From NCBI GenBank assembly GCA_902542145.1, contig CACBTL010000005.1:5735-69734 (forward strand): a stretch of 64,000 nt of DNA, in the 5' to 3' direction. A program made the position numbers and the translations under genes. Of this stretch, positions 37,462 to 56,139 are shown in pieces. Origin of the DNA: an uncultured SAR86 cluster bacterium (GTDB lineage: Bacteria > Pseudomonadota > Gammaproteobacteria > Magnimaribacterales > AG-339-G14). The stretch's first letter is position 1. Each line of letters opens with the position of its first letter. The notes below the pieces were generated by a model that had not been told where the DNA came from, did not search any database, and was given only the letters and a program-made list of their open reading frames with translations.

Positions 37462-37476
37462 AATTATATGTAGATT

Positions 37477-37510
37477 AAAAAACCCCTTTTAGTAACAAAG
37501 GGGTTTTTTT
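37477..37510 (+). terminator. Intrinsic terminator
   Basis: AAAAAACCCCTTT-loop-AAAGGGGTTTTTTT. Confidence 0.9.
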
Positions 37511-37586
37511 ATTCTATTTTTAAATTTTAAAAATAAATAAAATCGTTTTATTTTTGCTTAATTTAAGATAAATTGAACATTCAAAT

Positions 37587-37626
37587 ACCTAAAAAGGGAG
37601 ATTTTAGGTTATTCCTACAAGGACGT
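37587..37626 (+). promoter_or_regulatory. Leader hairpin with AGGGAGA loop plus TACAAGGACGT, CsrA/RsmA-like sites
   Basis: ACCTAAAA/TTTTAGGT 8-bp stem; second site matches UACARGGAUGU at 10/11. Confidence 0.45.
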
Positions 37627-37653
37627 TAAACTCAAAACAAAAAGGGGAATGTT

Positions 37654-40600: not shown

Positions 40601-40797
40601 CATGGAACGAACTTTCAGCTCAGATCACAGTTACTCCATCTGATAAAGCTTGGTTTGTTTCATTCTATGGTCAAAATATTACCGATGAAGAAAACATTGA
40701 CTTTATGGGTCTAGGAAGTTCAGCTGTTGGTAATACAAGAGGAATTGCTGCAAGAGAAAGAGCTCGTTACGGAGTTAGAGCTGGATACAATTTCTAA
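37654..40797 (+). CDS. TonB-dependent receptor 2
   Basis: Signal peptide, LEEVTVTAQR, RIEVIRGPAGTLFG, C-terminal YNF. Confidence 0.95.
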   Translation: MSVRNLSTSFLVLTLIFTGIAFSQDSGLEEVTVTAQRQEQSLQDIPLAVSALTEDDLFDQQIEGPSDLQLTVPSLRFGSDQFSGGGGFEIRGVTNLAVSATADAGVATHVNDLAIGSTTLQDGNFFDMQRIEVIRGPAGTLFGQNSVGGALNFITAKGDTSGFYGNVRADVGDYGRLGTTAVFNIPLDDKVALRIATNTLVQDGLIENTYKGSGGFQNTDNRNQSAYRMTLTVEATDNTTINVVHQGSIEDSNRNLFAGTWCDRDPSLVVGCTPVEVQNQKFEITHPMGTFVENLLVAMGVLDFTPVTDMSGAPQEFWQVNQRGAPLYQVDEYLTQLIIEHKINDDLSLTAAASRKDRKFLRQSSYASPTLQALRFKDTPASPGGLVVMSGYSPGRDGGFASNPAGCDDVTAGLYGLYGGCVLDTLSYPTGFDHSNALADTDSVEMKISSDYDGNHNFLIGLNYTDTFSDNHYDVGATGLDALAYKPPSLYVGPTNAALGIQLYPSLYRTDSLNTITSSSIFGEYYFQAREDLRLTFGLRYNEDYKESLSRQAFVNVAGYAPGAISDGAAAAIVGELPSSAQTDPLIAGMAQTVAGQQAGLLPAGAAAALWESVFCPSNGGFCALAGSIPDYGEVYRTTTGFDPEMEFSSTTGRFVVDYFINDDSMMYASISKGFKGGGINPAVDPIVFPNVPLAFPETNVWNVEIGFKNEFPDAGVRFNAAVFASQFDGYHVTKIIKKTSLNEGVDVDIMGAEFDLLYVPPSVPGLSVNASLSFTQSTIADGESALDPHNHDLQLTGGGKDWHLMKDVESEFFIVKKEALAAIWNSWLTETVTGGAATTPLDGIVAASAGTVSTEDLMAGLIPAEFHGDRTLGQPTPVSYLVPALGLTPAEGHLPSLADRSALGTMAQLHGFNLNPAAPDIQDGLDSDLSGNQLVHPDVMANVGLGYELDAGPVMVNFRLDYYYQGSRYVRIFNLPSDKLDPWNELSAQITVTPSDKAWFVSFYGQNITDEENIDFMGLGSSAVGNTRGIAARERARYGVRAGYNF

Positions 40798-40814
40798 AGC
40801 AAAACTTAACCTAC

Positions 40815-40844
40815 AAAAAACCCTGCTTAATTGCAGGGTTTTTT
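40815..40844 (+). terminator. Intrinsic terminator
   Basis: AAAAAACCCTGC-TTAATT-GCAGGGTTTTTT. Confidence 0.9.
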
Positions 40845-41011
40845 CTTTTATTTGAAGGCTTAGCTATACAATATAATTGTTTTTGAATTCACAAAGTTTT
40901 TCTTGACTATAAGGTAAATTATAAAAATCAAATAAAAAAATATTTAACTTTTTCAGTAATTAGGTTAGATTAGCTGTAGTTAAATTGATTTAAATAAACA
41001 AGGGAGTGTTT

Positions 41012-44000
41012 ATGTTAAACTTCACGTCTAAAAGCTTTGTTTTATTAGCTTTATTTTCATTCAGTCCAGTATACTTTTCTCAAGACAGCGGTTCTTCGTT
41101 GGAAGAAGTAATAGTTACAGCACAAAGGCAAGCCCAAAGCCTTCAAGATGTCCCATTGGCAGTGTCTTCTTTATCAAATAAAGATTTACTTGAACAACAA
41201 ATAGAAACACCAGGAGATTTAGCACTTACGGTGCCTTCATTAAGATTTTCCGGCTCAAGATTTGGGGGCGCAGGAGGTTTTGAAATTAGAGGGATTACAA
41301 ATTTAGCAACTTCTACAACTGCTGATGCCGGTGTAGCTGTTCATATAAATGATTTAGCTATTGGTGTTGGAGCGCTTCAAAGTAACAGGATCATGGATAT
41401 GAGTCGTGTTGAGGTAATTAGAGGACCTGCGGGTACACTTTTCGGTGCTAGTGCTGTTGGTGGTTCGATAAACTTCATAACAAATAAAGCAGAAGTAGAT
41501 AGTTTTTATGGAAGCACGAAAATTGATTTGGGAGATTACGGCAGGCTTGGCACAGATACTGTTTTTAATATTCCTTTAGATGATTCTGTTGCCCTAAGAA
41601 TTGCAGCTTCCACCTTAAAACAAGACGGTTTAATTGAAAATATTTATAAAGATGGTTTCCAAGATTTGGATAATAGAAATGATAGATCATATCGAGCAAC
41701 TTTAACTTTTGAAGCTTCAGACGCTACAACGATTCATTTAATTCACGATGTTTACGATGAGGATTCAAATAGAAATGTTTTTGTTGGTCGTTATTGTGTT
41801 CAAGCAGCATCTATGATTGATGGATGTTTGAGGGTAAACATAGAAGACCAGAAATTTGAAGTTCCTCACCCTCAAGGAACCTTAACACCTAACTTACTTT
41901 TACTTGCAGGAGTAGACAATCCTACTACATCAAGTGATCTTTCTGGGGTGCCCCAAGAATGGTGGCAGGCTAACGAGAGAGGTACTCCAATTTACGATGC
42001 TGAGATCGAAACAACTCAATTATTGATTGAGCATGAATTAGAAGATATGACTGTTAACATTGGAATACAAAGAAGATTGAGGGATTTCCTAAGAAGAAGT
42101 TCTTATGCTTCTCCAGATTTAGTTAAAGAAAGATTTAATGTAACTCCTGTTACCCCAGGAGGACTTGTTCAGATGTCCGGATACGGTCCTGGATGTGATT
42201 TACTAAGCGGTACTCAAGGTGTTACTGGTGGATGTATAGCAGACACCATAAATTACGATACCTCATACGATAACAATTATTCTTACGATCAAGTTGACGT
42301 AATTGAATTTAAGTTGGTGTCGGACTTTGACGGACAACATAACTTTTTATTCGGAGCTAATTATGCAGATACATTTGTTGATTCAAGTTATGAGGTAATT
42401 GCACCTGGACTTGATGTTTTGGCTCTGCAAACCCCAGCTGCTTTCTTACCTTTAGCAGCGCAACCTTTGGCTGCTGTTGGTATTCAAGCGTATCCTGGAA
42501 ACTTCAATACTATTACAAACACAAGCATTGAGAACCAATCTGTTTTTGGAGAATATTACTTTCAAGCAAGAGATGATTTAAGATTCACTTTTGGATTGAG
42601 ATATTCTGAAGATAAAAAGGCTGCTCCACAAGGAGTTTACTTCCTTAATGTGCTTGGTTTCAGGCAAGGAGTTATATCAGATGCGCAGGCTGCAGCCGTA
42701 ACAGATGGCGCCGTCCCAACGGCAGCTGCTTGGGAAGCTACATTCTGTCCAGACGTTGGTAACTTCTGTCCTGTAGCTGGAGCTCTTCCTACTATTGGTT
42801 CAGATTACGCAGCATTAGGTTTACCAAGTGAAGTTGATTTTGCTGCATTTACAGGAAGATTCGTAATTGATTATTTTATAAATGAAGATTCAATGATGTA
42901 CGTTTCATTAAATAAAGGTTTCAAAGGAGGAGGAATTAACCCTGCGATAGATCCAGCTGTCTTTCCAGACACTCCTCTTGCTTTTCCTGAGTCAGATGTT
43001 ATTGGCTTTGAAATAGGTTTCAAAAATGAATTTCCTGATCAAGGCGTAAGGTTTAATGTTTCAGCATTCTACAATGCCTTTGAAAATTATCATGTCACCA
43101 AGTTAGTAAATAGGGTTGCCTTAAATGAAGGTTTAGATGTGGACATCATGGGTCTGGAAGCAGATTTATTGTATGTACCTCCATCAGTTCCAGAATTCTC
43201 ATTAAATGCCAACTTCTCTTATATCTCTTCAGAGATAGCTGATGGTACTTCACAAATTAATCCTGTAAACAAGGATTTACAATTAACGGGTGGAGGCGCT
43301 TTATGGCACCAAGTTATGGATGCTCAAAGTAATAGGTTTATTATTACTAAGGAAGCTATGGGTGCTATTTATTCTTCTTGGCTAGCTGAAGCAACTACTC
43401 TAGGGCAAGCAGTAACTCCATTAGATGGAATTGTAGCTCTAACTGGTGGTGCCACACAGACAGCAGCTTTATTGGCTAACATTATTCCAATAGAGTTTCA
43501 CGGAGATAGATCATATGGAGCACAAACACCAGTTAGCTATTTTGCGCCAGCATTAGGAGTTTTACCTTCAGCAGGTCATCTACCTTCTATTGTTGGAACA
43601 AGAAGCACTCTGCAGGTGATGGCGCAACTTCATGGATATGATCTTGTTGATGGAACAGATATAAAGGACGGCCTAGAGCAGGATATTTCTGGAAATCAAC
43701 TGACACATCCTGATTTGACAGCTTCAGTTGGTGCGGCTTATTTACTAGATGCTGGACCAATTAATGTTAATTTCAGATTAGATTATTATTACAGAGGAGA
43801 AAGATATATTTCTCAATTTAATTTACCTAGCGATAAGTTGAGTGGTTGGGATGAAATAAATGCTCAAATAACTCTTGCACCATCTGATAATGCCTGGTTT
43901 GTTCAGTTTTATGGGCAAAACATAACTGATGAGCAAAACTTAGAATTTTTGAATATTAGTGATCAAAATGAAGGTTATGTAAATACTATAATTGGAAGAG

Positions 44001-44041
44001 AAAGAGCTAGATACGGAATACGTGCTGGTTACAATTTCTAA
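41012..44041 (+). CDS. TonB-dependent receptor 3 (paralog of receptor 2)
   Basis: ATG 41012 follows SD AGGGAG; LEEVIVTAQR, RVEVIRGPAGTLFG, C-terminal ERARYGIRAGYNF nearly identical to receptor 2. Confidence 0.95.
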   Translation: MLNFTSKSFVLLALFSFSPVYFSQDSGSSLEEVIVTAQRQAQSLQDVPLAVSSLSNKDLLEQQIETPGDLALTVPSLRFSGSRFGGAGGFEIRGITNLATSTTADAGVAVHINDLAIGVGALQSNRIMDMSRVEVIRGPAGTLFGASAVGGSINFITNKAEVDSFYGSTKIDLGDYGRLGTDTVFNIPLDDSVALRIAASTLKQDGLIENIYKDGFQDLDNRNDRSYRATLTFEASDATTIHLIHDVYDEDSNRNVFVGRYCVQAASMIDGCLRVNIEDQKFEVPHPQGTLTPNLLLLAGVDNPTTSSDLSGVPQEWWQANERGTPIYDAEIETTQLLIEHELEDMTVNIGIQRRLRDFLRRSSYASPDLVKERFNVTPVTPGGLVQMSGYGPGCDLLSGTQGVTGGCIADTINYDTSYDNNYSYDQVDVIEFKLVSDFDGQHNFLFGANYADTFVDSSYEVIAPGLDVLALQTPAAFLPLAAQPLAAVGIQAYPGNFNTITNTSIENQSVFGEYYFQARDDLRFTFGLRYSEDKKAAPQGVYFLNVLGFRQGVISDAQAAAVTDGAVPTAAAWEATFCPDVGNFCPVAGALPTIGSDYAALGLPSEVDFAAFTGRFVIDYFINEDSMMYVSLNKGFKGGGINPAIDPAVFPDTPLAFPESDVIGFEIGFKNEFPDQGVRFNVSAFYNAFENYHVTKLVNRVALNEGLDVDIMGLEADLLYVPPSVPEFSLNANFSYISSEIADGTSQINPVNKDLQLTGGGALWHQVMDAQSNRFIITKEAMGAIYSSWLAEATTLGQAVTPLDGIVALTGGATQTAALLANIIPIEFHGDRSYGAQTPVSYFAPALGVLPSAGHLPSIVGTRSTLQVMAQLHGYDLVDGTDIKDGLEQDISGNQLTHPDLTASVGAAYLLDAGPINVNFRLDYYYRGERYISQFNLPSDKLSGWDEINAQITLAPSDNAWFVQFYGQNITDEQNLEFLNISDQNEGYVNTIIGRERARYGIRAGYNF

Positions 44042-44055
44042 AATAAAGTAGCATT

Positions 44056-44088
44056 AAAAAAAACCCCACTTTAATGTGGGGTTTTTTT
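44056..44088 (+). terminator. Intrinsic terminator
   Basis: AAAAAAAACCCCAC-TTTAAT-GTGGGGTTTTTTT. Confidence 0.9.
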
Positions 44089-44124
44089 ATAATAAACGAT
44101 CAGATATTGAATAATTCCATTTAC

Positions 44125-45135
44125 ATGAAAATTTTAAACAACATCTCTGGAATATTAATTCTTTTAAATATTGCTGACCAAATATTATCTTCAAGCAGTT
44201 TAATACCAGAAAATATTTATTTTAATATCTTCGTTATTGCCTCTTATTGTTTTTTCGTTTTTGAATTTGTCTGCAGAATAATCTTTGAGAGAAAATTCTC
44301 TTTTTTATTGTTACTCGATTTAATTGTATTAATCAATTACATTTTCCTGGGATTCTATGATTTAAGAATATTAAGAATCTTCAGGGTGTATTCGATTTAT
44401 AGCAATCATAAGATGTTGCTTCCTACAAACACTTTGTTAAGGACCGTATATAACCAACGTTTAGCGTTATTAGGGTCTCAGATAATGGTTTTTTCTGTTC
44501 TGTTGATTTTTTCTACTTTAATTCACTTTATTGAAAGGGATATAAACCCTGAATACTTTGGATCCATTCTTAACTCAATGTGGTTTGGAATAGCTACCTT
44601 AACAACAGTAGGATATGGGGATGTAACTCCTTCATCTCCTTTAGGTCAAGTTTTAACATCTTTAACGATGTTTTTAGGTATAGGAATGTTTGCATTACCT
44701 GCAGCAATCTTAGCTTCAGCTTATTATGAGGAAATTCAAAAAAGAAACTTTCTTATCACGATGGAAACAATTTCAAGTATTCCATTATTCTCTATGTTGC
44801 CAATAGGTGCTTTAAGTAAAATTAATGATAAGTTGGTTGCGGAAATTTATCCTGCTAAAAGAAAAATTATTGAAAAAGGTGATGAGGCAGATTGCATGTA
44901 TATTATTGAGTTTGGTTCGGTGCAAGTTGAAATTGAATCACCTGTGACCTTGGGACAGGGTGATTATTTTGGTGAAAAAGGAATACTATCTAAAGATGTT
45001 CGAAATGCCTCGATAAGCTCCTTAGAAGAAGTTAAATTACTTTCGCTATCTAAAGAAGCTTTGGAAGAATTAATGGAAGAGTATCCACATCTCTTTGAAG
45101 AACTTGAAAAGGTAAGTTTAGATAGAACCGGTTAA
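44125..45135 (+). CDS. Cyclic-nucleotide-gated potassium channel (MloK1-like)
   Basis: Start moved to ATG 44125 because 44074 lies in the terminator; S4 LRILRIFR, filter TTVGYGD, CNBD with FGE...R.AS phosphate-binding cassette. Confidence 0.9.
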   Translation: MKILNNISGILILLNIADQILSSSSLIPENIYFNIFVIASYCFFVFEFVCRIIFERKFSFLLLLDLIVLINYIFLGFYDLRILRIFRVYSIYSNHKMLLPTNTLLRTVYNQRLALLGSQIMVFSVLLIFSTLIHFIERDINPEYFGSILNSMWFGIATLTTVGYGDVTPSSPLGQVLTSLTMFLGIGMFALPAAILASAYYEEIQKRNFLITMETISSIPLFSMLPIGALSKINDKLVAEIYPAKRKIIEKGDEADCMYIIEFGSVQVEIESPVTLGQGDYFGEKGILSKDVRNASISSLEEVKLLSLSKEALEELMEEYPHLFEELEKVSLDRTG

Positions 45136-45884
45136 TTAAACGAATAAGAAAATTTTGTACTCAGACCTTGATCATCTTCAACAGCATTTAATATAGGTTC
45201 TGAATCGTAAGCAATATCGTACTGCAGACTGATACTAAATTTTTCATTAACTTTAAAATTAAAAGCCATTAAGAAACTTGTTTTGTAATCGTTAAAATCT
45301 AATATATCGGGCTGATAATAAATAGTTGTATTGAAGTTAACGTTTTCAGCGATTTCAAAATTATCATGAAAATAAAGAGAGAATCTTGTTGCATCAGTGA
45401 TTGAATCTTCTAAATCAGTTTCCTCTTCATAAATAACGCCTGCTCCAAATCTCATTTGATCATCTATGATCGTTCTTAGACCGGTACCAAATAAGTTTCT
45501 CTCTCTGAATAACCTAAAAGGATTTTTAGCGGACTGGATAAAGAATTCAGTATGGTATTGATTGTATGTTTCAAAGACAGATCTTATATGAATGAGTTGC
45601 GATATATCTGTGACGTTTTGATTAATTTTCCTTTCAGACTTTCTTAGAATCATGAAATTCTCGACATCATCAAGATTGTAGTCAAATCTTAGATCAAAAG
45701 AATAGAAATCTCTGTCTCTATTTCCTCTAGAGGCATTTAAAGAAAAACCAAGACCGGCAAAAAAACCTTCTTTACCCTCGTTTCTTAACTCTTCTATGTT
45801 CACAATAGTCTGAGAAATAGCTATTGACGGCAAAAATAGTGCAATAAAGAGGAGTTTACTTAGTTGTTGCAACATATGCTCCAT
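45132..45884 (-). CDS. DUF481-like outer-membrane beta-barrel protein
   Basis: Signal peptide then IVNIE, G...ASRGN, amphipathic strands, YYQP, YDSEP, C-terminal FSYSFN. Confidence 0.75.
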   Translation of the reverse strand: MEHMLQQLSKLLFIALFLPSIAISQTIVNIEELRNEGKEGFFAGLGFSLNASRGNRDRDFYSFDLRFDYNLDDVENFMILRKSERKINQNVTDISQLIHIRSVFETYNQYHTEFFIQSAKNPFRLFRERNLFGTGLRTIIDDQMRFGAGVIYEEETDLEDSITDATRFSLYFHDNFEIAENVNFNTTIYYQPDILDFNDYKTSFLMAFNFKVNEKFSISLQYDIAYDSEPILNAVEDDQGLSTKFSYSFN

Positions 45885-48039
45885 TCCAATTTGGATCAGC
45901 TAAATTAAGCTTCATGTCTTTAATTCTGTCTTTAAAAATAGCGTAGTATAAATCAAACTCTGTAACTTGTTGCTCCCATTTCTCAATAAAATTTAAAGCT
46001 ATATCCCATTTTTGATTTCTGTAATTATTAAGAAATTCTTCATGATCTTTACTGAACTCGGATAATTTTCCATCTTTCAAAGAGAATTTATCAAAAGAAG
46101 TATAAATTTTTACAGGTTCATTTTTTCCTTTCACTTGAATTAGATCTAATTCGAAAAGATTTGTATTTGATTTAAGACCATTCACTGTTTCTTGTCCAAG
46201 AATCCTCTGAAATCCATAAGTTCCAGATTGACCTTCTAATCTTGAAGCTAGGTTTACAGGGTCACCTAAGACCGTGTAATCAAACCTTTTTTCTGAACCC
46301 ATATTTCCAACAATACATTCACCGGTATTGATTCCGATACCAATTTTTAGTTCCATTCCTTTTTGTTTTTCAAATTCAATATTAAATTCCTTTAACGCTT
46401 TTTCCATATCAAAAGAAGCTTTTAAAGCTAAATCGGTATGATTGTCTTGATCTGTGGGTGCATTCCAAAAGGCCATAATGCAATCTCCCATATATTTATC
46501 AATCGTGCCTGCGTTATCTAAAATTTCATTTGATAGTACTGTAAGGAGGTTATTTATAAGTTCCGTTAGCTCTTCAGGGTTGGATTTATAACTTTCTGAT
46601 ATGGCTGTAAATCCTCTGATATCAGAAAATAGAAAGGTCATATTCTTCTTCTCTCCACCAAGCTTCAGCGACTCGCTTGATTCAGCAAGTCTAGAAACCA
46701 TTTCCGGGGCTAAATATTGAGAGAATGCCGTTCTAACCTTACTTCTTTCTAATTCAGTAAAAAGAAAATTAAAGAAAGTGATTATTAAGTAACTTGTTAA
46801 GCATATTATTAAAGGAGAAATAGGATCTATTAAATAATCTAATTCGTTGAAACCATAGAAAGAACCATAAAGGCTGCTTAAATTTGCTACTAAAAATGTT
46901 ATCAAGCCTCCGATAGGACCAAAATATTGAATGATTAAGCAAATCAAAATAGAAAAAAGTAAGCCAAATAAAAACTCTGCTCCTTCCATCCAATCTGGTC
47001 TAACTAAAAAATCTCCATTTATAATTTGTTGAATTCCTTGAGCAATGATCGTGACACCAGGTATATCGTTCTCAAGAGACGTATTTCTAATATCTAGCAG
47101 TCCTGACGCACTTGTGCCTACAAGGACAATCTTTCCTGCAAAGAATTCTTTATCGTAAGCATTATTTATGACTTCAAAAGCTGGAATAATGTTCAAATTT
47201 TTTTTAAATGTTGAATGTAGCCAGAGGTAACCGTTTGAATTAGTTGGAATTATTACGTTTCCAAGTTTTACGTTGTTGATACCAGTACTTTCACCAAATG
47301 CTAACTCTCCTGATGCATTAGACGACTTGATTTGATACGTGCTTGCTCCTATCGCAACCCTTAAGGTTTCCAGCATCAAAGATGGTACTATCTGTCCATT
47401 CACTACTTCAAATGTTGGCAGGCTTCTGACAATGCTTGAATTTCCTCCAATACTCATAGACCCAACTCCAGCAGAAGAATCAATTAAAGTGGGTAAATTG
47501 TTTTGCATGCCCGTGTATTTAGGAAGAAATTCTTTTGGTGAGTCACCTTGTATTATTAGGCCGTATTTAGGTGATATATCTTCAGTTATTAATTTATTAT
47601 TTGGTGCACTTCCCAGAACAACAGTAGAGTGTGATTCCATAGACTCTGCAAAAACTCTGTCATTTGGTTTTATTTTTTTTAACTCTTTAATAAGATCAGA
47701 ATTTGCTGAATATTGCTCAGAAAGAACGTCACTTCCAGTTCTATCTCTTTCAGCAAAAACGATATCAAATGATGTAGTGAGAGCCTGCTCTGTATTAGTA
47801 ACTAATCTAGATAATAGATCTCTAGACCATGGCCATTGACCTAGATTATTTAGCGACTGATCATCAATATCAATTATTACAACGGGATCATCTTCTAACT
47901 TATCCCTTGGGCTTATTTGTTGCAAAGTATCGAAAGCAAACAATCTTAAATCATTAAAAATATTTAATGGATTCGCTAAAGGAATTAACGCTATTAAAAT
48001 AGCTAAAGGTAGAAGTAATTTTTTATAAATGTTCTTCAT
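45856..48039 (-). CDS. CHASE2-sensor class III adenylate cyclase
   Basis: VVIIDIDD.SL..LGQWPWSR, FDIVFAE (CHASE2); 3 TM; FSDIRGFT, DKYMGD, RFDYTVLGDPVNLASRLE with Lys/Asp ATP-specificity residues. Confidence 0.95.
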   Translation of the reverse strand: MKNIYKKLLLPLAILIALIPLANPLNIFNDLRLFAFDTLQQISPRDKLEDDPVVIIDIDDQSLNNLGQWPWSRDLLSRLVTNTEQALTTSFDIVFAERDRTGSDVLSEQYSANSDLIKELKKIKPNDRVFAESMESHSTVVLGSAPNNKLITEDISPKYGLIIQGDSPKEFLPKYTGMQNNLPTLIDSSAGVGSMSIGGNSSIVRSLPTFEVVNGQIVPSLMLETLRVAIGASTYQIKSSNASGELAFGESTGINNVKLGNVIIPTNSNGYLWLHSTFKKNLNIIPAFEVINNAYDKEFFAGKIVLVGTSASGLLDIRNTSLENDIPGVTIIAQGIQQIINGDFLVRPDWMEGAEFLFGLLFSILICLIIQYFGPIGGLITFLVANLSSLYGSFYGFNELDYLIDPISPLIICLTSYLIITFFNFLFTELERSKVRTAFSQYLAPEMVSRLAESSESLKLGGEKKNMTFLFSDIRGFTAISESYKSNPEELTELINNLLTVLSNEILDNAGTIDKYMGDCIMAFWNAPTDQDNHTDLALKASFDMEKALKEFNIEFEKQKGMELKIGIGINTGECIVGNMGSEKRFDYTVLGDPVNLASRLEGQSGTYGFQRILGQETVNGLKSNTNLFELDLIQVKGKNEPVKIYTSFDKFSLKDGKLSEFSKDHEEFLNNYRNQKWDIALNFIEKWEQQVTEFDLYYAIFKDRIKDMKLNLADPNWNGAYVATTK

Positions 48040-48076
48040 TTTCTTTAAATAAAACCTTTATAATTGACGCCTTGTC

Positions 48077-49399
48077 ATGTTTGTTAGATATATTTTATTA
48101 CTATTTATCTATTGTTTCGGTGTTTTTGTATTAGCGCAAAACGTACCACCGACTATATCGGATCCTGAGCAATTAGAAACCATTAGAAAAGAAAGGCAAG
48201 CTATTTTTGATGAATTAATAGAGGATCCAACTAATCAAGGTAATTTATTTAAATACGCCAACCTATCAATTATTTTAGGAGATTTAGAGGCTGCGATAGG
48301 GGTTTTTGAACAAATGCTAATTTACGATCCTACTCTGGCAAGAATCAGGCTAGAACTAGGAGTGCTTTATTTCAGGCTAGAAGCTTACGCTCCAGCAAAA
48401 CTATACCTTAATAGTGTAAAAGACTATGATCCACCTCAGGAAGTTATTACAAAAGTTGAATCCTTTTTGGCAGCTATCGAAGAACAGGAAAAACCACTGA
48501 CAGTTAATCAATTGATGACTTTTGGACTTGCTAGCTCTACAAATGCCAACGCCGGTATAGATGCCGATATTATAGAAATTGCTGGTTTTCCTCTTGAGGT
48601 TTCTCCTGATTCAAAACCGCAATCTGATTCAAAATTTTCTGTCAATTACAATTTATCTTTGACTCAAAATTTGAATAACCCTCGCGGTGATGCAATTAAT
48701 TATTTTCTTGCAGTTGCAACCACCTATCAATCTAGATTTACACAATTTGATCAAAGAAGTTTTGTTTTTGGTTTAAATAGTAGATTAGATGTAGAGGAGG
48801 GTAGTTTAGGAGTACTAAAAAATCCATCGGTAACTCCAAGTTTTACGAGAATTCAAGTTTACTTACAAGGAGAGCCCCTGCTTGAATCTAATGCTTTCAG
48901 CGTGAGTCACTCCGGATCTTTATCGAACGGTTCTGTTTTTGAATATGGTTTTAACGTAGATAAAAGAAATTTTATTGGGTTAGACGCAAAGAGCGGTTAT
49001 CGATACGGAACCTTTGTAAATAATACCTTTAATCTTTCGAATAATAACTCCAGTTGGACTATGAATATTTTCTCAGATAAATACGAAGCCAATCAAAAAT
49101 TTGAGTCTTTTAGACAATGGGGTTTTGGTTTTAATTATAGAATGCCTCTCCCAGATGCATGGGTTATGGCTACAAATTATGATTGGTCTACTAAAAACTA
49201 TCTTGCTCCTAATGGTCCTCTTGGAACAAGAAAAGACATTAACGAATCATCAGATTTAACCTTTTCAAGACTTTATATAAATTGTTTGTCTATGAATATT
49301 TTTCTAAAACCGTTTGATAATAGAAGCAGCATTGATATATTTTCAAGAAGTAACACTGATGTAGGTGTGAACCTTTCTTATCTCTGCTTAAATAACTAA
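48077..49399 (+). CDS. TPR + outer-membrane beta-barrel protein (DUF560/SLAM-like)
   Basis: Signal peptide; TPR helices (AIGVFEQML..DP...RIRLELG.LY); S.TNAN barrel start; amphipathic strands. Confidence 0.65.
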   Translation: MFVRYILLLFIYCFGVFVLAQNVPPTISDPEQLETIRKERQAIFDELIEDPTNQGNLFKYANLSIILGDLEAAIGVFEQMLIYDPTLARIRLELGVLYFRLEAYAPAKLYLNSVKDYDPPQEVITKVESFLAAIEEQEKPLTVNQLMTFGLASSTNANAGIDADIIEIAGFPLEVSPDSKPQSDSKFSVNYNLSLTQNLNNPRGDAINYFLAVATTYQSRFTQFDQRSFVFGLNSRLDVEEGSLGVLKNPSVTPSFTRIQVYLQGEPLLESNAFSVSHSGSLSNGSVFEYGFNVDKRNFIGLDAKSGYRYGTFVNNTFNLSNNNSSWTMNIFSDKYEANQKFESFRQWGFGFNYRMPLPDAWVMATNYDWSTKNYLAPNGPLGTRKDINESSDLTFSRLYINCLSMNIFLKPFDNRSSIDIFSRSNTDVGVNLSYLCLNN

Positions 49400-49431
49400 A
49401 CTTAAATTTTACTTGAGTATATAATCCGCTG

Positions 49432-50157
49432 ATGAATCAAATAATTCAATTTTTCTTAAAGATTAGAAATAGTAGTTTTTTTAATGGAATCGTAATTTTT
49501 GTAATCATAGGATCTGCTATTTATGCAGGAGTAAGCTCTTACGATCTATCAGATGACTACGTTGGAATTTTAAATTTCTTAGATACTGCAATCACAGTTT
49601 TCTTTTTGATAGAGATAATAATAAGAATTGTCGCAGAGAGATCTTTAATTAAATTTTTCCAAAGTGGATGGAACATATTTGATTTCATAATTGTCACAGT
49701 CAGCTTAATTCCTATTACTGGAGGAGAAACAGCCTTTGTAGCAAGGTTGCTTAGAATAGTAAGAGTATTAAGAATTATCACAGTCGTTCCTGCCTTAAAG
49801 AAAATTGTAGATGCCTTATTTGAGACTCTTCCAAGAGTAGGTTTTGTTGCACTTCTAATGTTCATTTTTATATACATATGGGCTGCTATAGGTACATTAG
49901 TTTTCGGGACCACAGATCCAGAGCATTGGGGCAATATTGGCCTTGCAATGCTCACTCTTGCACAGGTTGCTACTTACGATGATTGGGCAGCGGTTATGAA
50001 AGATATTATTGAGGTGTTTCCTTGGGTATGGATTTATTTCATTAGTTTCATTCTACTTAACGCTGTAATAATGCTGAATATGGTAATAGGTATCATTGTT
50101 GATGTTATGTCGAAGAAATCCAGCAGCGGTCAACTAAGCGCAGATGAGAATCAATAA
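49432..50157 (+). CDS. BacNav-family 6TM voltage-gated cation channel, filter TYDDWA
   Basis: F.IEIIIR (S2), FF.SGWNIFDFIIV (S3), RLLRIVRVLR (S4), LNMVIGIIVD (S6); TATAAT 6 nt before the ATG. Confidence 0.92.
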   Translation: MNQIIQFFLKIRNSSFFNGIVIFVIIGSAIYAGVSSYDLSDDYVGILNFLDTAITVFFLIEIIIRIVAERSLIKFFQSGWNIFDFIIVTVSLIPITGGETAFVARLLRIVRVLRIITVVPALKKIVDALFETLPRVGFVALLMFIFIYIWAAIGTLVFGTTDPEHWGNIGLAMLTLAQVATYDDWAAVMKDIIEVFPWVWIYFISFILLNAVIMLNMVIGIIVDVMSKKSSSGQLSADENQ

Positions 50158-50386
50158 TTATTTGGTTCTTTTAATATCTCTAACTTTACTTTCTTGCACA
50201 TACGAAAAAGTTGTAAAAAACTCTATGTATGATTTGGATGAGTTTGATGCTTGTTATTTAGATCACAAATCATCTTTAGATGAAGATAAACAAAAATACC
50301 TTGATATGCTTATAAAGCTCAGAAAATACAATTGCACTCGCTACTATGAACTTTTTGTTAGAGGAACAATAATTCAGGGTTACTAG
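50144..50386 (+). CDS. Small hypothetical lipoprotein
   Basis: Lipobox LLSC; overlaps the channel 3' end by 14 nt; fills the gap to a convergent gene. Confidence 0.6.
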   Translation: MRINNYLVLLISLTLLSCTYEKVVKNSMYDLDEFDACYLDHKSSLDEDKQKYLDMLIKLRKYNCTRYYELFVRGTIIQGY

Positions 50387-52155
50387 AACCAGAAAATCAG
50401 CAGCAATGGAGTTGATATTGCAATGATAAGTAGCTCCAAAGGTAAACCAAGTTTCCAATAGTCTCCAAATTTATAATTACCAGGCCCCATCACTAAAGTA
50501 TTACATTGATGACCTATTGGTGAAAGAAAAGCACAGCTTGCACCAATGGCAACGCACATCAAGAAAGGTTCAGTAGGGTAGCCTAACTGATTAGCTATGG
50601 TTACTGATATTGGTCCCATGATAACTGCTGTAGCTGCATTATTAATGACATCGGATAAACACATGGTTGCAACCATTAAAATAATTAAAGTGCCTACTAA
50701 ACCAAATTGAATCGATTGAGTAGCTATAGCAGATGCAAGAATATTAGTCAGACCACTGTTATACAATGCATCGCCTATTGGGATCATGGCTCCAAGTAAT
50801 ACAATAACAGGCCATTCAATGTGCCTATACAGCATGTTTGGCTTTAATAACTTAGAGGCAACAAAAGCTAAAACACACAGCAAAAATGCTATAACAACAT
50901 TTAAAAAATTTGTGATAACAAGGAGTAAGCTAAATGAAAATAAACCTAGCGACAAAAGAATTTTAGAGTCATCTTTTATCACATCTAGCTCTCTTTGCCA
51001 CAAAGGCATTAGGCCTAGATCCTGCATTTTTTGGCTTGTATCTTTTTGCTCTTCCCTCGTTGCAATTAATAATACATCTCCAGATTTGAAGTGCTCGTTT
51101 GATAAACTTCCTTGAAAATTTGTTCCTTTTCTCCAAAGCCCTAAAATAGCCATTTGTCTTCCTGCCATTGTAGAAAAATAGTCTATAGTTCTTCCTATCA
51201 ATCTAGAGCCAGGAGAAATCATAGTTTCAATTTCACCAAAACTTCCTGAATCTAGATCTTTTATTTCAGTTCTAAGGGATAGTCCATATTTTTCTTGGAG
51301 ACTAGACACTTCTTCAGGATTAATTTTTAAAAGCAATATTTGTGATTCTTTTAATACATCAAAATTACTTAATATTTCTCTAGCATCTGAGGACTCATTT
51401 ACAGACCCGATAAGAACGATGTCAGATCCTAACTCTTTCCTAAACTCTTGGGTTCTTTTACCAATAAGTTCACTATCTTTATTTATTACTAATTCCACTA
51501 AATATTCATTAATATCTACTAAAGAGGAAGAGTCATTTTCTCCAGATCTATTTTTTACAAGAATGAATCCTAATAATGCTATGAAAACCAAACCACCAAT
51601 GCTTACAGGTAATCCTGCATAGGCAAAATCAAAGAATTCAAAGCCTTGATCGGAATATTGATCTCTAAATTCGGAAATAATAATATTTGGTGGCGTTCCT
51701 ATTTTAGTATTCATTCCACCTAAAATTGATGCAAAAGCAAGAGGCATTAAAAATTTAGAAGGGGACCAGCTCATTTTTTGGCATATTCCTAAGGTAACCG
51801 GTAGAAGCATTGCCATAGCTCCAATATTGTTCATAAATGAAGACAGTACAACTGCTATTCCCATCAAGATCACAAGAAATTGAAATTCACTACTGGCAAT
51901 TTTTTGAAGAAGGCTGCCAATTTTTCCTATCAATCCTGAAGCTTCTAAGCCCTTACTTATTAATAATACAAGTGCAACAGTTATCACAGCTGGATGGCCA
52001 AATCCAACGAATGCTTCTTTTGCAGGCACAAATCCAAGCACTACTAAAACCGCTAAACTTGTAAGCGCAACTGCATCATAGCGATATCTTCCCCATATAA
52101 ACATTCCCACCATTACAAAAAGTATGGCTGAAAGTAAGATTTGATTGGTATCCAT
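50383..52155 (-). CDS. SLC13/CitMHS-type permease with TrkA-C domains
   Basis: RYD.VAL, FGHPAV, FMNN, IGTPPNII, central soluble RCK_C-like region, INN.AT, PIGHQCN.LVMGPGNYKF.DY. Confidence 0.9.
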   Translation of the reverse strand: MDTNQILLSAILFVMVGMFIWGRYRYDAVALTSLAVLVVLGFVPAKEAFVGFGHPAVITVALVLLISKGLEASGLIGKIGSLLQKIASSEFQFLVILMGIAVVLSSFMNNIGAMAMLLPVTLGICQKMSWSPSKFLMPLAFASILGGMNTKIGTPPNIIISEFRDQYSDQGFEFFDFAYAGLPVSIGGLVFIALLGFILVKNRSGENDSSSLVDINEYLVELVINKDSELIGKRTQEFRKELGSDIVLIGSVNESSDAREILSNFDVLKESQILLLKINPEEVSSLQEKYGLSLRTEIKDLDSGSFGEIETMISPGSRLIGRTIDYFSTMAGRQMAILGLWRKGTNFQGSLSNEHFKSGDVLLIATREEQKDTSQKMQDLGLMPLWQRELDVIKDDSKILLSLGLFSFSLLLVITNFLNVVIAFLLCVLAFVASKLLKPNMLYRHIEWPVIVLLGAMIPIGDALYNSGLTNILASAIATQSIQFGLVGTLIILMVATMCLSDVINNAATAVIMGPISVTIANQLGYPTEPFLMCVAIGASCAFLSPIGHQCNTLVMGPGNYKFGDYWKLGLPLELLIIAISTPLLLIFWF

Positions 52156-52298
52156 AAAAGAATAGTTACTTTACATTAAGATGAATTGAATATCATGAAA
52201 CGATTAGATTTAATTAAAATCTCTTTGATCATAGATAAATTAAGGCTTTTTAGCATTAAATATAGTAAAATTTAATTACCAAATAAGTTTTTGTTAGT

Positions 52299-52327
52299 TT
52301 GACTATGTGTCATTTTGACAATAAAAT
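52299..52327 (+). promoter_or_regulatory. Sigma70 promoter TTGACT-N17-TAAAAT with palindrome TGTCA-N3-TGACA in the spacer
   Basis: -35 at 52299-304, -10 at 52322-27, palindrome 52308-20. Confidence 0.55.
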
Positions 52328-52383
52328 TCTCTTTTTTCTTAATTATGAGAAAAATATAGGGGAAAACTTCATGGAGTGGGTTT

Positions 52384-52860
52384 ATGAAGACAATAAACAT
52401 GAAAAAATTTAACAAAGTACTGATCCTTCCTTTGTTACTATTTGTATTAGCCAATTGTGCTGGTACTAACGTTACTACTTATTCTTCTGCGTCAATAATG
52501 CTAGATGATTTTATCGAGCAAAATGGAGGAAAAGGAGCAGTAAATGACGAGACAATACATTATCCTTTAGATATTCAAACTTTATCTTGTTCTGAAATGC
52601 AGGCAAATAGAATCAGAATTTCTAATTTAATTAACAATCTATCTGAAAGAGTTATCGAGAACTCAAATAGAAGCACTAGCTACTCTACTTATGGCTTAAC
52701 AAAGCACGATCCTTTGATTGGGACTAGTTTTATTGGTGTCAGTTCAGTTGGGTTAAATCCTGAAGTTACTGAATTCAGAAAGCTTAAATTAGTACTAGAA
52801 GAGCTCAATACAACTTCTATCCTCAAGTGTACTCCACCTGAGGTAATGAGAACTCCGTAA
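52384..52860 (+). CDS. Hypothetical lipoprotein
   Basis: Lipobox LANC; mature Cys pair (LSC.E ... KC); start could be 52399. Confidence 0.7.
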   Translation: MKTINMKKFNKVLILPLLLFVLANCAGTNVTTYSSASIMLDDFIEQNGGKGAVNDETIHYPLDIQTLSCSEMQANRIRISNLINNLSERVIENSNRSTSYSTYGLTKHDPLIGTSFIGVSSVGLNPEVTEFRKLKLVLEELNTTSILKCTPPEVMRTP

Positions 52861-52902
52861 ACAAATCCTAATTTCCAAGACTACATGGCTATATAATTAA
52901 TT

Positions 52903-53844
52903 ATGGCCATTCGTCTTGCGTATTTATTCAGTTTTTCATTTCTATTTCTTTATAGTATTTTTACTTTCTTCGGTATTGGTCTTTCACTAGAGCCTGGAAT
53001 GGAAATTGGTGGTATATCAAGATGGTGTGAAAGGGTAAGCGATAGTATTTTTAGAGAGCCTGTAAATACTCTTACAAACTTAGCTTTTATGGTGACTGGC
53101 TTAATAATGTTTCATGTTCTTAATCAAGATGAAGAAAATGTAAATACTTTCCATACCCTGACTCCAATAGCTATTTTGTATGCTTCAGCAGCTATCTTTT
53201 TAGGTCCAGGATCTTTTTTAATGCACGGTACTCATACAGAATGGGGTGGATGGGCTGATAACTTGAGTATGGTGATGTACATCGTTATCCCTTGGCTTTA
53301 TAACTTCAAGGTAATGGCTCAATGGAGCGTAAGTACCTTTTTTAAAATCTATCTAAGTATTATTGTTGCCTATGGTTTAGGTAGATGGTTTCTTGGTGAT
53401 GGTATGGGGATTGGATTTAGTGTTTATGGTGTATCTATAGGAATATGGGTTGTATCTGAATTCTTATTTAGATTTTGGAGTCAGAGAATGAGATTTATCT
53501 CTGGCTTTATAGGTTTTCTTGTAGCAGCTATATTTGGAATCTACCCTCAGGAAATTTTTAGTAATCTTGATCAGTATTGGTGGATCATATTTTTCTGGTT
53601 ACCCGGACTTGTTTGCAACTCTGAGCCTGATTACGAGCGAAGGCATTTCCCTTGGTATTTTGTTGGGATGTTTTTATATATTTCAGCTTTTGTAATTTGG
53701 TTGCAAGGTTATCCAGATCAACCTTTATGTAATCCAGATTCTTTGATTCAACCCCATGGTTTATGGCATATATTGTGTTCGTTAGCCACGTTGAGTTTCT
53801 TTGTTTTTTTAAGAACAGAACAAATAAAAAAAAGAGAGGCATAA
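52903..53844 (+). CDS. Alkaline-ceramidase-like (CREST superfamily) membrane hydrolase
   Basis: WCE...EPVNTLTNLAF, GSFLMH (SxxxH), WAD..SM, HGLWH (HxxxH Zn motif). Confidence 0.8.
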   Translation: MAIRLAYLFSFSFLFLYSIFTFFGIGLSLEPGMEIGGISRWCERVSDSIFREPVNTLTNLAFMVTGLIMFHVLNQDEENVNTFHTLTPIAILYASAAIFLGPGSFLMHGTHTEWGGWADNLSMVMYIVIPWLYNFKVMAQWSVSTFFKIYLSIIVAYGLGRWFLGDGMGIGFSVYGVSIGIWVVSEFLFRFWSQRMRFISGFIGFLVAAIFGIYPQEIFSNLDQYWWIIFFWLPGLVCNSEPDYERRHFPWYFVGMFLYISAFVIWLQGYPDQPLCNPDSLIQPHGLWHILCSLATLSFFVFLRTEQIKKREA

Positions 53845-53867: not shown

Positions 53868-54575
53868 TTATCTTCTCGGCCAAGCTTTAACTGGGATTAT
53901 TAAGGAAGTATTTAATACTTCTCTCATCCCTTTAACTTTTCTCGAAAATTTTTCAAAAGCTTTTGAAGATGTTTGTTCCGTAGCTCCATCAGTTAAAGTT
54001 ACAAAATCAGATGCTCCGATATAAACAAAATGAGTAAATTCATCATTACCATATAGCACTCTGTTTAGCCCATATGAGCTTGTAACTGAACCTGATTCAA
54101 CATTAGATTCCATTAGTTCTGACCAAGCCTCGGCGTACTCTTCTTCGTTTTCTAAGTTCATTCTCATATCATATTTAGTGAATGCACCGTCAACAGTCCA
54201 ATCATTGGCTTCAAAGATAGGAATAATCGCTAAGTTTGATACAGGGCTTGCGGAACTCAATATTGTTCCAAGCATAGTAGCGGCTTCAGGACAACTTTGC
54301 GTTAGTGCTCCTGCTTCTTGGAAGTCTTCCATAGTCATGTAAGAGGCAATAATAAAGTGTGTAGAGTCACTTGCTCCATTTAGCGTTTCTGACATCAATC
54401 CTAAGTCGCCTGGAAATTTCTTACCGCAATCAGATGCATGAAACTTATCCAAAGCGGAAACTACACCAACTGGATTCGTTACATTCATGTGATAAAAGAC
54501 ATGCATTGCATGCCTTTCACTTTGTGCAAAGATAAATCCAGATGATATAGAAATTAATAATAATAATTTTTTCAT
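53868..54575 (-). CDS. Secreted hypothetical protein, paralog family member 1
   Basis: Start moved to ATG 54575 (SD AGGAG); signal peptide; two internal repeats each with TH; Cys pair. Confidence 0.8.
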   Translation of the reverse strand: MKKLLLLISISSGFIFAQSERHAMHVFYHMNVTNPVGVVSALDKFHASDCGKKFPGDLGLMSETLNGASDSTHFIIASYMTMEDFQEAGALTQSCPEAATMLGTILSSASPVSNLAIIPIFEANDWTVDGAFTKYDMRMNLENEEEYAEAWSELMESNVESGSVTSSYGLNRVLYGNDEFTHFVYIGASDFVTLTDGATEQTSSKAFEKFSRKVKGMREVLNTSLIIPVKAWPRR

Positions 54576-54679
54576 AATTTCTCCTATATTAATGTTACCA
54601 ATATATATCAATCTGATTACTAAATTGAATCATAATCAAAAATTTTTCGAAGATATCACACAGATTATTTCATTAAGAT

Positions 54680-54713
54680 AAAAAAAAGAGAGACTATGGC
54701 CTCTCTTTTTTTT
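54680..54713 (-). terminator. Intrinsic terminator
   Basis: Minus strand GAGAGG-loop-TCTCTC (one G-U) followed by a U-run. Confidence 0.85.
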
Positions 54714-54722
54714 AATTAAATT

Positions 54723-55418
54723 TTAATTAGGCATATAGTCTTTTACAATAGTTACTAAATTAGTCCCAATAATTTCTCTCACTTTACCTGCTTTTGAAGA
54801 AAACTTCTGCATAGACTTTGTAGGAACTCTCTCTTGAAATACTTCCATTGCTGAATCCATATCTGGATATCCACAAAATGCCATGTGAGTTCCATAGCTA
54901 TCAACTCTTGATCCCGGTCCCCACGCAGCTAATCCCCACGAACCTGGGCAGCGACTATCTTCACTGTTCATCAGATCAGAATAAGCTTTTACGTAAGCAG
55001 ATGGATCTGATACGTTCATGATCCAAGAGACAAATACTGTATCCTTAAGTGTGTCACCACCGCTAACTACTGGAAAGGCTAGCATTTCATACGTCGAATT
55101 TGATATTTCAGACATAGTTTGAAAGTATTTAGTCCATCCAGGACAGGAAGCCCATTGACCGCTCCACTGCAAATAAGACTCATTATTTTCGAATAAGACT
55201 GCGTAAGAGTGAGTAGTGACTTCATCTGCATTAAAGTTTTCAGCCATTAATCTAACTACAGCTGATCCTCCAGGACACTCTTGTGAAAGCTTATCTGTAG
55301 CTGATAAAACTCCTAAAGGATTATTTGTCTCTATTCCGAAAAAGCCAAAGAAAGGACCATCAGCTGCCCAAACATTGGATAAACTAAAAAAAAGTGTAAA
55401 ACATAATATTTTTTTCAT
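54723..55418 (-). CDS. Secreted hypothetical protein, paralog family member 2
   Basis: Signal peptide; TTH and GTH repeats; two mature Cys pairs; SD GGAG. Confidence 0.8.
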   Translation of the reverse strand: MKKILCFTLFFSLSNVWAADGPFFGFFGIETNNPLGVLSATDKLSQECPGGSAVVRLMAENFNADEVTTHSYAVLFENNESYLQWSGQWASCPGWTKYFQTMSEISNSTYEMLAFPVVSGGDTLKDTVFVSWIMNVSDPSAYVKAYSDLMNSEDSRCPGSWGLAAWGPGSRVDSYGTHMAFCGYPDMDSAMEVFQERVPTKSMQKFSSKAGKVREIIGTNLVTIVKDYMPN

Positions 55419-55437
55419 TTTTTATTCTCCAATTAAA

Positions 55438-56139
55438 TTAATCGAATCTTGCAACGACAGTGCTCATTGAGACCCTTTCAATTGTTACAACACCTTGCAC
55501 TTTAGATTGAAAGTTTATGAATGCAGGCGAAGGACTCTTTGCATTTCTATGCGAAACTTCAAGATAAGTTTTCATGTCAGGATATCCACAGAAGGTCAAA
55601 TGAGTTCCCCAAGATGGATTTGTACCTGCTCCAATAGCAACCAATCCCCAAGAACTAGGACAAATTCCTTCGGCAGCAAGTGCAGGCATCAATTGCGCAT
55701 AAGCTCCTGCAAATTTTGCTGGATCAGTCACAGATATATTAAAAGCCTGAAAAACTGAATCTTTTAGTTGATCTCCACCACCCATTAGAGGAATTCCCAT
55801 TGAGGAAAAAGTAGTATCCACTACAGGGTTAGTTTTAGAAAAGTACTTAGCCCAACCATCGCAAGAGGATGTGCTGTTCCAATAATCCATAAATTCTTCA
55901 TTATTTGCAAAAGTACCAACAAATAAATGAGTTGATTCATCGTCTGCATCAAATGTATTAGCTAAAAGAGTAAACCTTCCTGCAGCAGGACAATCTCTGT
56001 TTAACTTATTCGCAGCATTTAGAACTGTTAATGGATCTTCAGTAGAAATACCAAAATATCCAACAACAGGGCCGTCGTTGTTTGCATAAGTTAAGGAAGA
56101 GAGGATTAAACTTAATAATATAAACTTTATTTTTTTCAT
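55438..56139 (-). CDS. Secreted hypothetical protein, paralog family member 3
   Basis: Signal peptide; STH and GTH; CPSSWGL and FCGYPDM shared with member 2; SD AAGGAG. Confidence 0.8.
   Translation of the reverse strand: MKKIKFILLSLILSSLTYANNDGPVVGYFGISTEDPLTVLNAANKLNRDCPAAGRFTLLANTFDADDESTHLFVGTFANNEEFMDYWNSTSSCDGWAKYFSKTNPVVDTTFSSMGIPLMGGGDQLKDSVFQAFNISVTDPAKFAGAYAQLMPALAAEGICPSSWGLVAIGAGTNPSWGTHLTFCGYPDMKTYLEVSHRNAKSPSPAFINFQSKVQGVVTIERVSMSTVVARFD

Follow-up and report, generated by a model that had tools for sequence, protein, structure and literature searches.

We identified, within the 64,000-nucleotide stretch of DNA analysed here (the window), a single-domain cation channel whose selectivity filter, TYDDWAA, is strongly conserved and, within a known channel superfamily, seems not to have been described before; judged by its residues, the channel is probably permeable to Ca2+. 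Our preferred reading, to which we assign a probability of about 0.5, is that the pore would discriminate only modestly (PCa/PNa roughly 1–50), letting Ca2+ through alongside Na+ and K+, as distinct from a strict Ca2+ channel. A full-text literature search, outside of which most subscription papers lie, returned TYDDW nowhere, YDDWA or TFDDW only in unrelated papers, and no description of the TYDDW clade or of a channel-cyclase module. A TxDDW sequence may sit unremarked in the Figure 1 tree of a study available in part (PMC7041947).

The channel gene and its selectivity filter

The open reading frame of the channel is intact, with the filter codons in frame (Table 1). A single Ion_trans domain (PF00520) spans S1–S6 and the P1-filter-P2 region of the protein. 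An AlphaFold2 model (mean pLDDT 87, low past residue 230) contains the S1–S6, P1 and P2 helices, and its best Foldseek matches are NaChBac, NavAb and NavRh. The four S4 arginines named by the initial annotation are present, as are all of the S2 and S3 partners (D51, F58, E61, W80 and D84), and the arginines, F58, E61, W80 and D84 are invariant in a 47-sequence alignment. By its domain, its fold and its S4 charges and counter-charges, the protein is a member of the BacNav superfamily. No second channel of this kind was found in the source genome (78% complete), and the protein likely assembles as a homotetramer that opens upon depolarisation. Searches with the protein returned no family above the cut-off in NCBIfam, only generic ion-transport clusters in the ESM Atlas and, from a profile-free search of cluster representatives, no close TYDDW-clade member, the matches being mostly four-domain eukaryotic channels (19/150 were shorter than 450 aa).

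Table 1. Positions of the channel, its motifs and the neighbouring genes in the window
Feature	Position	Strand	Basis or remark
MloK1-like cyclic-nucleotide-binding K+ channel, TVGYG filter	44074..45135	+	PF07885, PF00027, PF00520; PDB 2ZD9 E 2.4e-42
DUF481 outer-membrane protein, usually in module	45132..45884	-	PF04338; neighbourhoods
CHASE2-domain class III nucleotide cyclase, 727 aa, divergent from TPR gene	45856..48039	-	PF05226 E 1.2e-41, PF00211 E 7.1e-22
TPR protein, 440 aa, 32 bases upstream of channel	48077..49399	+	TPR_19/TPR_9
TATAAT, six bases before channel ATG	49420..49425	+	same spacing in 12/12 distinct genus-level upstream sequences
Single-domain 6TM voltage-gated cation channel, BacNav superfamily, TYDDW clade, 241 aa	49432..50157	+	PF00520 E 4.5e-43
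S4 gating charges R105, R108, R111, R114	49744..49773	+	RxxRxxRxxR in translation
Gln178, three residues before filter Thr	49963..49965	+	Gln in 121/121
Selectivity filter T181-Y-D-D-W-A-A187	49972..49992	+	codons ACT TAC GAT GAT TGG GCA GCG
15-residue polar tail replacing coiled-coil C-terminal domain	50110..50154	+	15 residues past S6-end VDVM
SLC13/CitMHS-type transporter with TrkA-C domain	50383..52155	-	flanks module in several lineages

The coiled-coil C-terminus, which the initial annotation had described as missing, is indeed absent. There is no C-terminal four-helix bundle: counted from the same column, TLESWSMG proteins continue for 34–63 residues, and the tails of 120 TYDDW-family members are 14–45 residues long (median 19). 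Tail loss as a novel trait was rejected, as NavRh (PDB 4DXW, 229 aa) and its homologs are also short-tailed. A short tail need not abolish gating, because NavAb still gates after removal of 40 tail residues (available part of PMC6363407). This result and the fully conserved voltage sensor argue against the view that the protein is conserved but no stand-alone voltage-gated channel, one that needs a module partner or another trigger or passes another ion. We consider that view highly improbable, although the missing C-terminal domain, the channel's tie to a multi-gene module and the absence of current from two proteobacterial AnclNavs in Sf9 cells (PMC7041947, in part) would all agree with it.

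The filter was read directly from its codons. Across the channel and its best 120 homologs (62–100% identity), Y182, D183, D184 and W185 are invariant in 121/121 sequences, while 85 of the 241 columns are invariant overall; the YDDW motif is therefore not due to chance. Position 4 is accordingly always Asp and never the Gly4 of CavMr. Position 1 is Pro in place of Thr in a single sequence, and position 7 is Ala in 84, Asn in 24, Met in 13 and Asp in none, and never acidic. The third outer Asp, reported as lacking by the initial annotation, is thus absent throughout this set, but it is not obligatory in CavAb, whose PDB entries 4MS2, 5KLG, 6KE5 and 6JUH carry TLDDWSN. The Tyr that had been called unusual does mark the clade (one genome-derived member, L042, has Phe in its place), but an aromatic residue at position 2 is ordinary in the neighbouring TFEDWTD clade, where it is Phe.

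Sequencing error as the source of the two GAT codons, a concern raised at the outset, was rejected. Both codons are unchanged in four sequencing runs aligned on the gene, in which the only filter change is a synonymous TAC>TAT at 49977; this comparison used assembled contigs, where rare variants are invisible. The Asp codons vary synonymously (GAT/GAC 27/9 and 17/19) across 36 genes, one of them an unrelated DD channel, and the exact 241-aa protein is present on 195 contigs.

Relatives of the channel and other natural Asp-Asp filters

We placed the channel in two IQ-TREE phylogenies, one with 56 rows chosen by identity from 175 and one with 46 hand-picked rows and the filter columns removed; T[FL]EDWTD proteins were stand-ins for NavPp and CavMr, which the trees lack, as they do Bacillus sequences, CatSper, NsvBa and OsEukCatA1. 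The TYDDW clade is supported at 100/100 in the 56-row tree and 100/98 in the 46-row tree, and the branch parting it from the canonical TLESWSMG clade at 99/98 and 100/99, respectively. In both trees the clade groups with TFEDWTD channels (from Pseudoalteromonas, Thiomicrorhabdus and others) and with NavRh-like channels. Its sister differs between them, being the TFEDWTD channels at 87/81 in the 56-row tree and TLEGWPD, TIDGWIE and TFENWPD channels at 96/94 in the 46-row tree, and a reading of the clade as sister to NavRh is not supported. Canonical channels, including NaChBac, have one extra residue after filter position 7 that is missing from the TYDDWAA channel, from NavRh and from the T[FL]EDWTD proteins; this indel agrees with a placement outside the canonical BacNavs.

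Consequently, engineered NaChBac and CavAb, with which the channel had initially been compared, provide the wrong background. The survey of TxDDW homologs then proposed did separate the clade from canonical BacNavs and uncovered a second DD clade, but placed the TYDDW clade against CavMr through the T[FL]EDWTD stand-ins only. By the same proxy, the grouping with T[FL]EDWTD proteins suggests that the TYDDW clade may belong to the AnclNavs. Asp4 and an aromatic position 2 are common to the clade and these neighbours, whereas Asp3, Tyr2 and a neutral position 7 set it apart.

The best prokaryotic sequence match in the PDB is NavRh (4DXW; E = 3.5e-61, gap-free over residues 6–229), which likewise ends just past S6. 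Its filter, TLSSWET, differs in having an acid at position 6, and NavRh-like proteins form a separate clade with TxS[SG]WE filters, a pattern that TYDDWAA does not follow. The filters of NavPp (TLEDWTD) and CavMr (TLEGWVD), as given in part of PMC7041947, resemble TYDDWAA in being more acidic than TLESW, and NavPp shares its Asp4; the TYDDWAA channel departs from them with Asp3 and Tyr2 and has neither Asp7 nor Gly4. Its 17 residues after D224 compare with 40 or more in ancestor-like BacNavs. It has none of the features of canonical NavAb and NaChBac, namely a TLESWxxG filter, a place in the TLESWSMG clade and a four-helix bundle.

The engineered channels CavAb (TLDDWSD/N) and CaChBac (LDDWAD) share Asp3-Asp4-Trp5 and Gln at −3 with the TYDDWAA channel. 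Unlike them, the latter is natural, has Ala at position 7 (A, N or M in its family) in place of Asp or Asn, is one residue shorter before P2, lacks the coiled coil and is only 34–41% identical. NsvBa (TLDSWGS) and OsEukCatA1 (TLDAWAD) have a natural Asp3, as does TYDDWAA, and are described in the accessible sources as non-selective and Ca2+-permeable, but they lack Asp4 and belong to other lineages.

Residue −3 from the filter Thr is Arg in 78/78 TFEDWTD and 8/8 TLEDWTD proteins (86/86). It is Gln in 33/33 genome-derived TYDDW-clade members and 24/24 TLESWSMG proteins, as it is in CavAb (FQVMTLDDWSN). This pattern suggests that, in T[FL]EDWTD proteins, Arg at −3 pairs electrostatically with the filter or with Asp7. 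Such an Arg may offset the filter acids and, if NavPp also carries it, make NavPp a poor guide to TYDDW.

The loop of Cav3.3 domain II (FQILTQEDWNVVL) aligns without a gap to the TYDDWAA loop, and among Cav domains it is domain II that the channel's pore loop would seem to resemble most. Separately, three genomes (G142, G194 and G318) contain tandem BacNav-type gene pairs (L143, L149 and L156) with T[TMS]EGWP[DTS] filters like those of Cav domains I and III; these pairs are possibly heteromeric channels.

A second natural DD filter, TFDDWSGG, occurs in a canonical backbone with a coiled-coil-length tail (locus L153, positions 331–1107, minus strand, genome G292). Among the best 120 homologs of this protein (P0372–P0491), 113 parse as TFDDW[SA]x[GA], 19 of which are TFDDWSNG, and 7 were not parsed; the sources are named as Rhabdaerophilaceae, Beijerinckiaceae and Hyphomicrobiales. 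The TFDDW clade nests among canonical channels (99/97, 46-row tree). A single origin of all DD filters was rejected, as joining the TFDDW and TYDDW clades gives a p-AU of 5e-69, and Asp-Asp filters have arisen naturally at least twice, in the TYDDW clade and in Hyphomicrobiales. A 2021 review states that the CavAb/CaChBac filter is found in no native Ca2+-selective channel (PMC8677417). TFDDWSNG differs from CavAb's TLDDWSNG only by Leu-to-Phe. With its canonical backbone and this single-residue difference, the TFDDWS[AGN]G clade is a better candidate for a natural CavAb than is the TYDDW clade. The two clades, with a NavRh/AnclNav-like and a NavAb-like backbone, offer a direct test of the backbone dependence of the two-Asp-ring rule, a question left by the NavPp/CavMr work. 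A third DD protein (P0230; TFDDWAK, 250 aa, short tail) belongs to neither DD clade, has a long branch of its own in the 46-row tree and comes from a single contig. No viral relative was found for P0001 or P0230 when viral carriage was searched.

Expected ion selectivity

The preferred reading of a Ca2+-permeable but poorly selective channel follows from Asp3, Gln at −3 and the lack of an outer Asp. Eight carboxylates (D183 and D184, each four times) would attract divalent ions, while the Glu-to-Asp change at position 3 would widen the constriction and lower the discrimination between Na+ and K+. A position 7 without an acid would weaken outer binding and so reduce block, and Gln at −3 would leave the Asp ring unneutralised. 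No T-x-D-D-W-A-A filter was found among tested channels and mutants, and LDDWAS is absent from the available part of PMC2229573. The comparable filters, as reported in the accessible parts of the papers, include NaChBac with Asp4 alone, which has a PCa/PNa of 35 and passes both ions (PMC2229573), and the Asp3 filters of NsvBa (PMC4225499) and OsEukCatA1 (PMC6509283, PMC10120453), both non-selective. Asp4 mutants on the AnclNav side gave 7.7 (CavMr-G4D), 13.8 (CavMr-Pp) and 1.7 (NavPp-T6V), with PK/PNa near 1 (PMC7041947), and a filter charge of −8e has been associated with Ca2+ permeation (PMC7764494).

The initial annotation had proposed a natural Ca2+-permeable or Ca2+-selective channel. Ca2+ permeability is plausible in light of the Asp4 result in NaChBac, but Ca2+ selectivity is a minority reading, because Asp4 filters on the same side of the tree gave block or weak selectivity. 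A GHK estimate for seawater at −60 mV, which uses assumed concentrations and ignores K+ and Mg2+, puts the Ca2+ share of the inward current at 7% for a PCa/PNa of 1, 44% for 10 and 70% for 30. The source genome also encodes an Na_Ca_ex family transporter, which is a common gene and weak support for a Ca2+ role.

A highly Ca2+-selective native channel, with a PCa/PNa above 100 achieved as in CavAb through two stacked Asp rings, appears quite unlikely. D3, D4 and Gln at −3 are as in CavAb (the two Asp also as in CaChBac), NaChBac with LDDWAD reached a PCa/PNa of 133 (PMC2229573, in part), and the third Asp is missing from the TLDDWSN filter of the CavAb structures, with Asn similarly found at position 7 in 24/121 family members. 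However, the backbone here is different and one residue shorter after the filter. CavAb-type filters did not render NavPp Ca2+-selective, and the determinant in CavMr is Gly4, which is absent from the TYDDWAA channel (PMC7041947); LDDWAD yielded only about 30 in NsvBa (PMC4225499). In one review, Asp at position 4 of a one-domain channel is linked to Ca2+ selectivity, with CatSper1 as the cited case, but Ca2+ block is allowed as well (PMC10120453).

It is possible, if unlikely, that the channel behaves as NavPp does, conducting mainly Na+ (or monovalent ions generally) while partly blocked by seawater Ca2+ or Mg2+ bound at the Asp rings. Both trees put the channel on one side with the TFEDWTD and TLEDWTD channels. 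NavPp itself (TLEDWTD) is Na+-preferring, with a PCa/PNa of 0.31 and Ca2+ block that T6A strengthens; with TLEDWAD, close to TYDDWAA, it had no inward current in divalents (available part of PMC7041947). Hydrated Ca2+ was captured in the NavRh filter (PMC4692491), and NavAb becomes blocked when position 2 is made hydrophilic, but not with the aromatic L176F (PMC10349818, in part). Furthermore, the TYDDW clade has neither Asp7 nor Arg at −3, and once the filter columns were removed its nearest rows were the TLEGWPD, TIDGWIE and TFENWPD proteins (96/94) and not TFEDWTD. If the channel were Na+-conducting and blocked, it would be a modest addition to known filter diversity.

The module with a cyclase and a K+ channel

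Homologs of the channel were found in 41/101 genomes of the same order. In 38 of these the homolog is at least 63% identical, and TYDDW could be read in 37, a contig end truncating the remaining one. The channel was found in all 15 other members of the window's genus and in 14/17 genomes of the sister genus, compared with 0/8 and 0/9 in two other genera of the family. Named sources include Woeseiaceae and marine Gammaproteobacteria, together with single MAGs labelled Opitutia, Flammeovirgaceae and Nitrosopelagicus, records that may be misbinned; sequencing runs with the channel stretch are almost all marine where labelled. Together with these runs, the small size of the source genome, its GC content of about 33% and its rhodopsin would fit a SAR86-like gammaproteobacterium. 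The other three homologs (L023, L024 and L025 in G051, G064 and G084) are NavRh-like, with TMSSWEN, TLSSWET and TVSGWED filters; each is the sole match in its genome and does not lie beside the module.

The K+ channel homolog has its TVGYG at aa 178 and MloK1 (mll3241) as its nearest solved relative; its orthologs are 337 aa long, and the true start of the gene is probably about 16 codons downstream of 44074. The cyclase has its catalytic motifs, which presumably serve their usual roles, and the TPR protein, of which a homolog has a weak TPR_Slam match, probably has an outer-membrane barrel at its C-terminus. The module is contiguous in four genomes (G056, G081, G089 and the Woeseiaceae genome G504), where the cluster also includes a FecR-domain gene identified by weak matches. 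Outside the window's genus, a giant gene lies upstream of the channel on the same strand in 17/20 clade loci, three with one small gene between. The full giant proteins (2,100–2,650 aa) have 4–8 or more cadherin repeats, and their N-termini match FecR weakly (E of 1e-4 to 3e-6 in 3/4 proteins scanned). Their C-terminal motif we take to resemble a TbpB-type barrel, and giant and TPR proteins could be a Slam-like export pair. The giant genes are sometimes tandem (L181–L190, L198 and L199).

The arrangement varies between lineages. The FecR-cadherin gene is absent from the window and was not found in the 78%-complete source assembly; in the window's genus no giant gene lies between the TPR gene and the channel, and cadherin proteins are encoded elsewhere in 13/15 genomes. 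On its own, a cadherin protein says little about the module, as 47/101 genomes have one, some of them from genera that lack the channel. The sister genus keeps the channel with the giant gene and has the cyclase block far away, and in G017 that block is about 165 kb from the channel. Cyclase and K+ channel genes accompany the channel in 4/5 further named genomes.

We compared the presence of the channel and of CHASE2 in the 101 genomes and found both in 31, the channel only in 7, CHASE2 only in 3 and neither in 60, so that the channel occurs in 31/34 CHASE2-positive and 7/67 CHASE2-negative genomes. The corresponding counts with the K+ channel are 31, 7, 2 and 61. Outside the window's family they are 5, 3, 0 and 43 for CHASE2 (the channel in 5/5 versus 3/46). 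Fisher P-values for these tables overstate the association, because related genomes are not independent samples and because block transfer, which alone can produce such co-occurrence, would give the same table. Four of the seven channel-only genomes are below 90% complete, and in G059 the channel is a relic truncated at its 5' end; G053 and G074 (94–96% complete) have an intact channel and no CHASE2 match and are real exceptions, and G026 and G029 (90–92% complete) have the cyclase and no channel match. As a control, an MloK1-like gene was found in 17 of 400 other Pseudomonadota genomes, and the 4 of these that also have a BacNav-type gene always keep the two far apart (0/4 together), unlike the TYDDW module.

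Clusters of CHASE2 adenylate cyclase, FecR and TPR genes are known in Campylobacterota, in an account whose available part mentions no channels (PMC9239204). The same three gene types cluster here, and the CHASE2 cyclase adjoins the TPR gene in the window (45856–49399); the TYDDW module differs in that FecR is fused to cadherin repeats, two ion-channel genes are added and no phosphodiesterase was noticed among its genes.

Two further observations count against the module. In the sister genus, the giant gene and the channel are parted by roughly 180 conserved bases that include a terminator-like hairpin (L181:18345–18530, L185, L189 and L190). The channel also likely has its own promoter and a leaderless mRNA, as the position of TATAAT suggests. 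A consensus promoter scan, which requires a −35 box, listed 8 sites, compared with an expected 10.1, and missed the TATAAT at 49420, and Rfam gave no match within 43000–53000 of the window. Six RNA runs contain the channel stretch. In one (X17), a contig of depth 121 begins at 49459 and the upstream contig has a depth of 12.5, although contigs cannot show starts or levels.

The roles of these gene families point, tentatively and at somewhat less than even odds, to a cellular circuit. Contact or a ligand sensed through the FecR-cadherin and TPR proteins would switch the cyclase on, cAMP would open the MloK1-like K+ channel, K+ efflux would be followed by depolarisation of the membrane, and depolarisation would cause the TYDDWAA channel to admit a pulse of Ca2+ or Na+. 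That the module is a self-contained excitability system of streamlined marine gammaproteobacteria, ending in a Ca2+-preferring DD channel and a Ca2+ signal, is doubtful. Flagellin, as a link to chemotaxis, was not found in the 78%-complete source genome. Few roles are known for BacNav-type channels in Gram-negative cells, and the association of this one with cyclase and cyclic-nucleotide-gated K+ channel genes provides a concrete, testable circuit in a widespread marine lineage.

Two loci contain rearranged channel genes. In G059, which has no CHASE2 or K+ channel match, a channel gene without its first 65 or so codons abuts a TauD-like gene (L214:6750–7280) and appears to be what a deletion of the module left behind. 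In G004 (60% complete), a single ORF begins as the cyclase N-terminus and continues as the channel, starting at S4 (L223:59–1219), probably as an assembly chimera and possibly as a real deletion.

Three tandem TonB-dependent-receptor-like genes (1,011–1,047 aa; window 34351–44041) directly precede the K+ channel gene, and three tandem paralogous, secreted-looking proteins of 231–247 aa are encoded at 53868–56139, the one scanned having no Pfam match. A lipoprotein-like gene of 145–158 aa, also with no Pfam match (window 52384–52860, L022, L031 and L032), lies downstream of the channel in the window's genus and between the giant gene and the channel in three loci.
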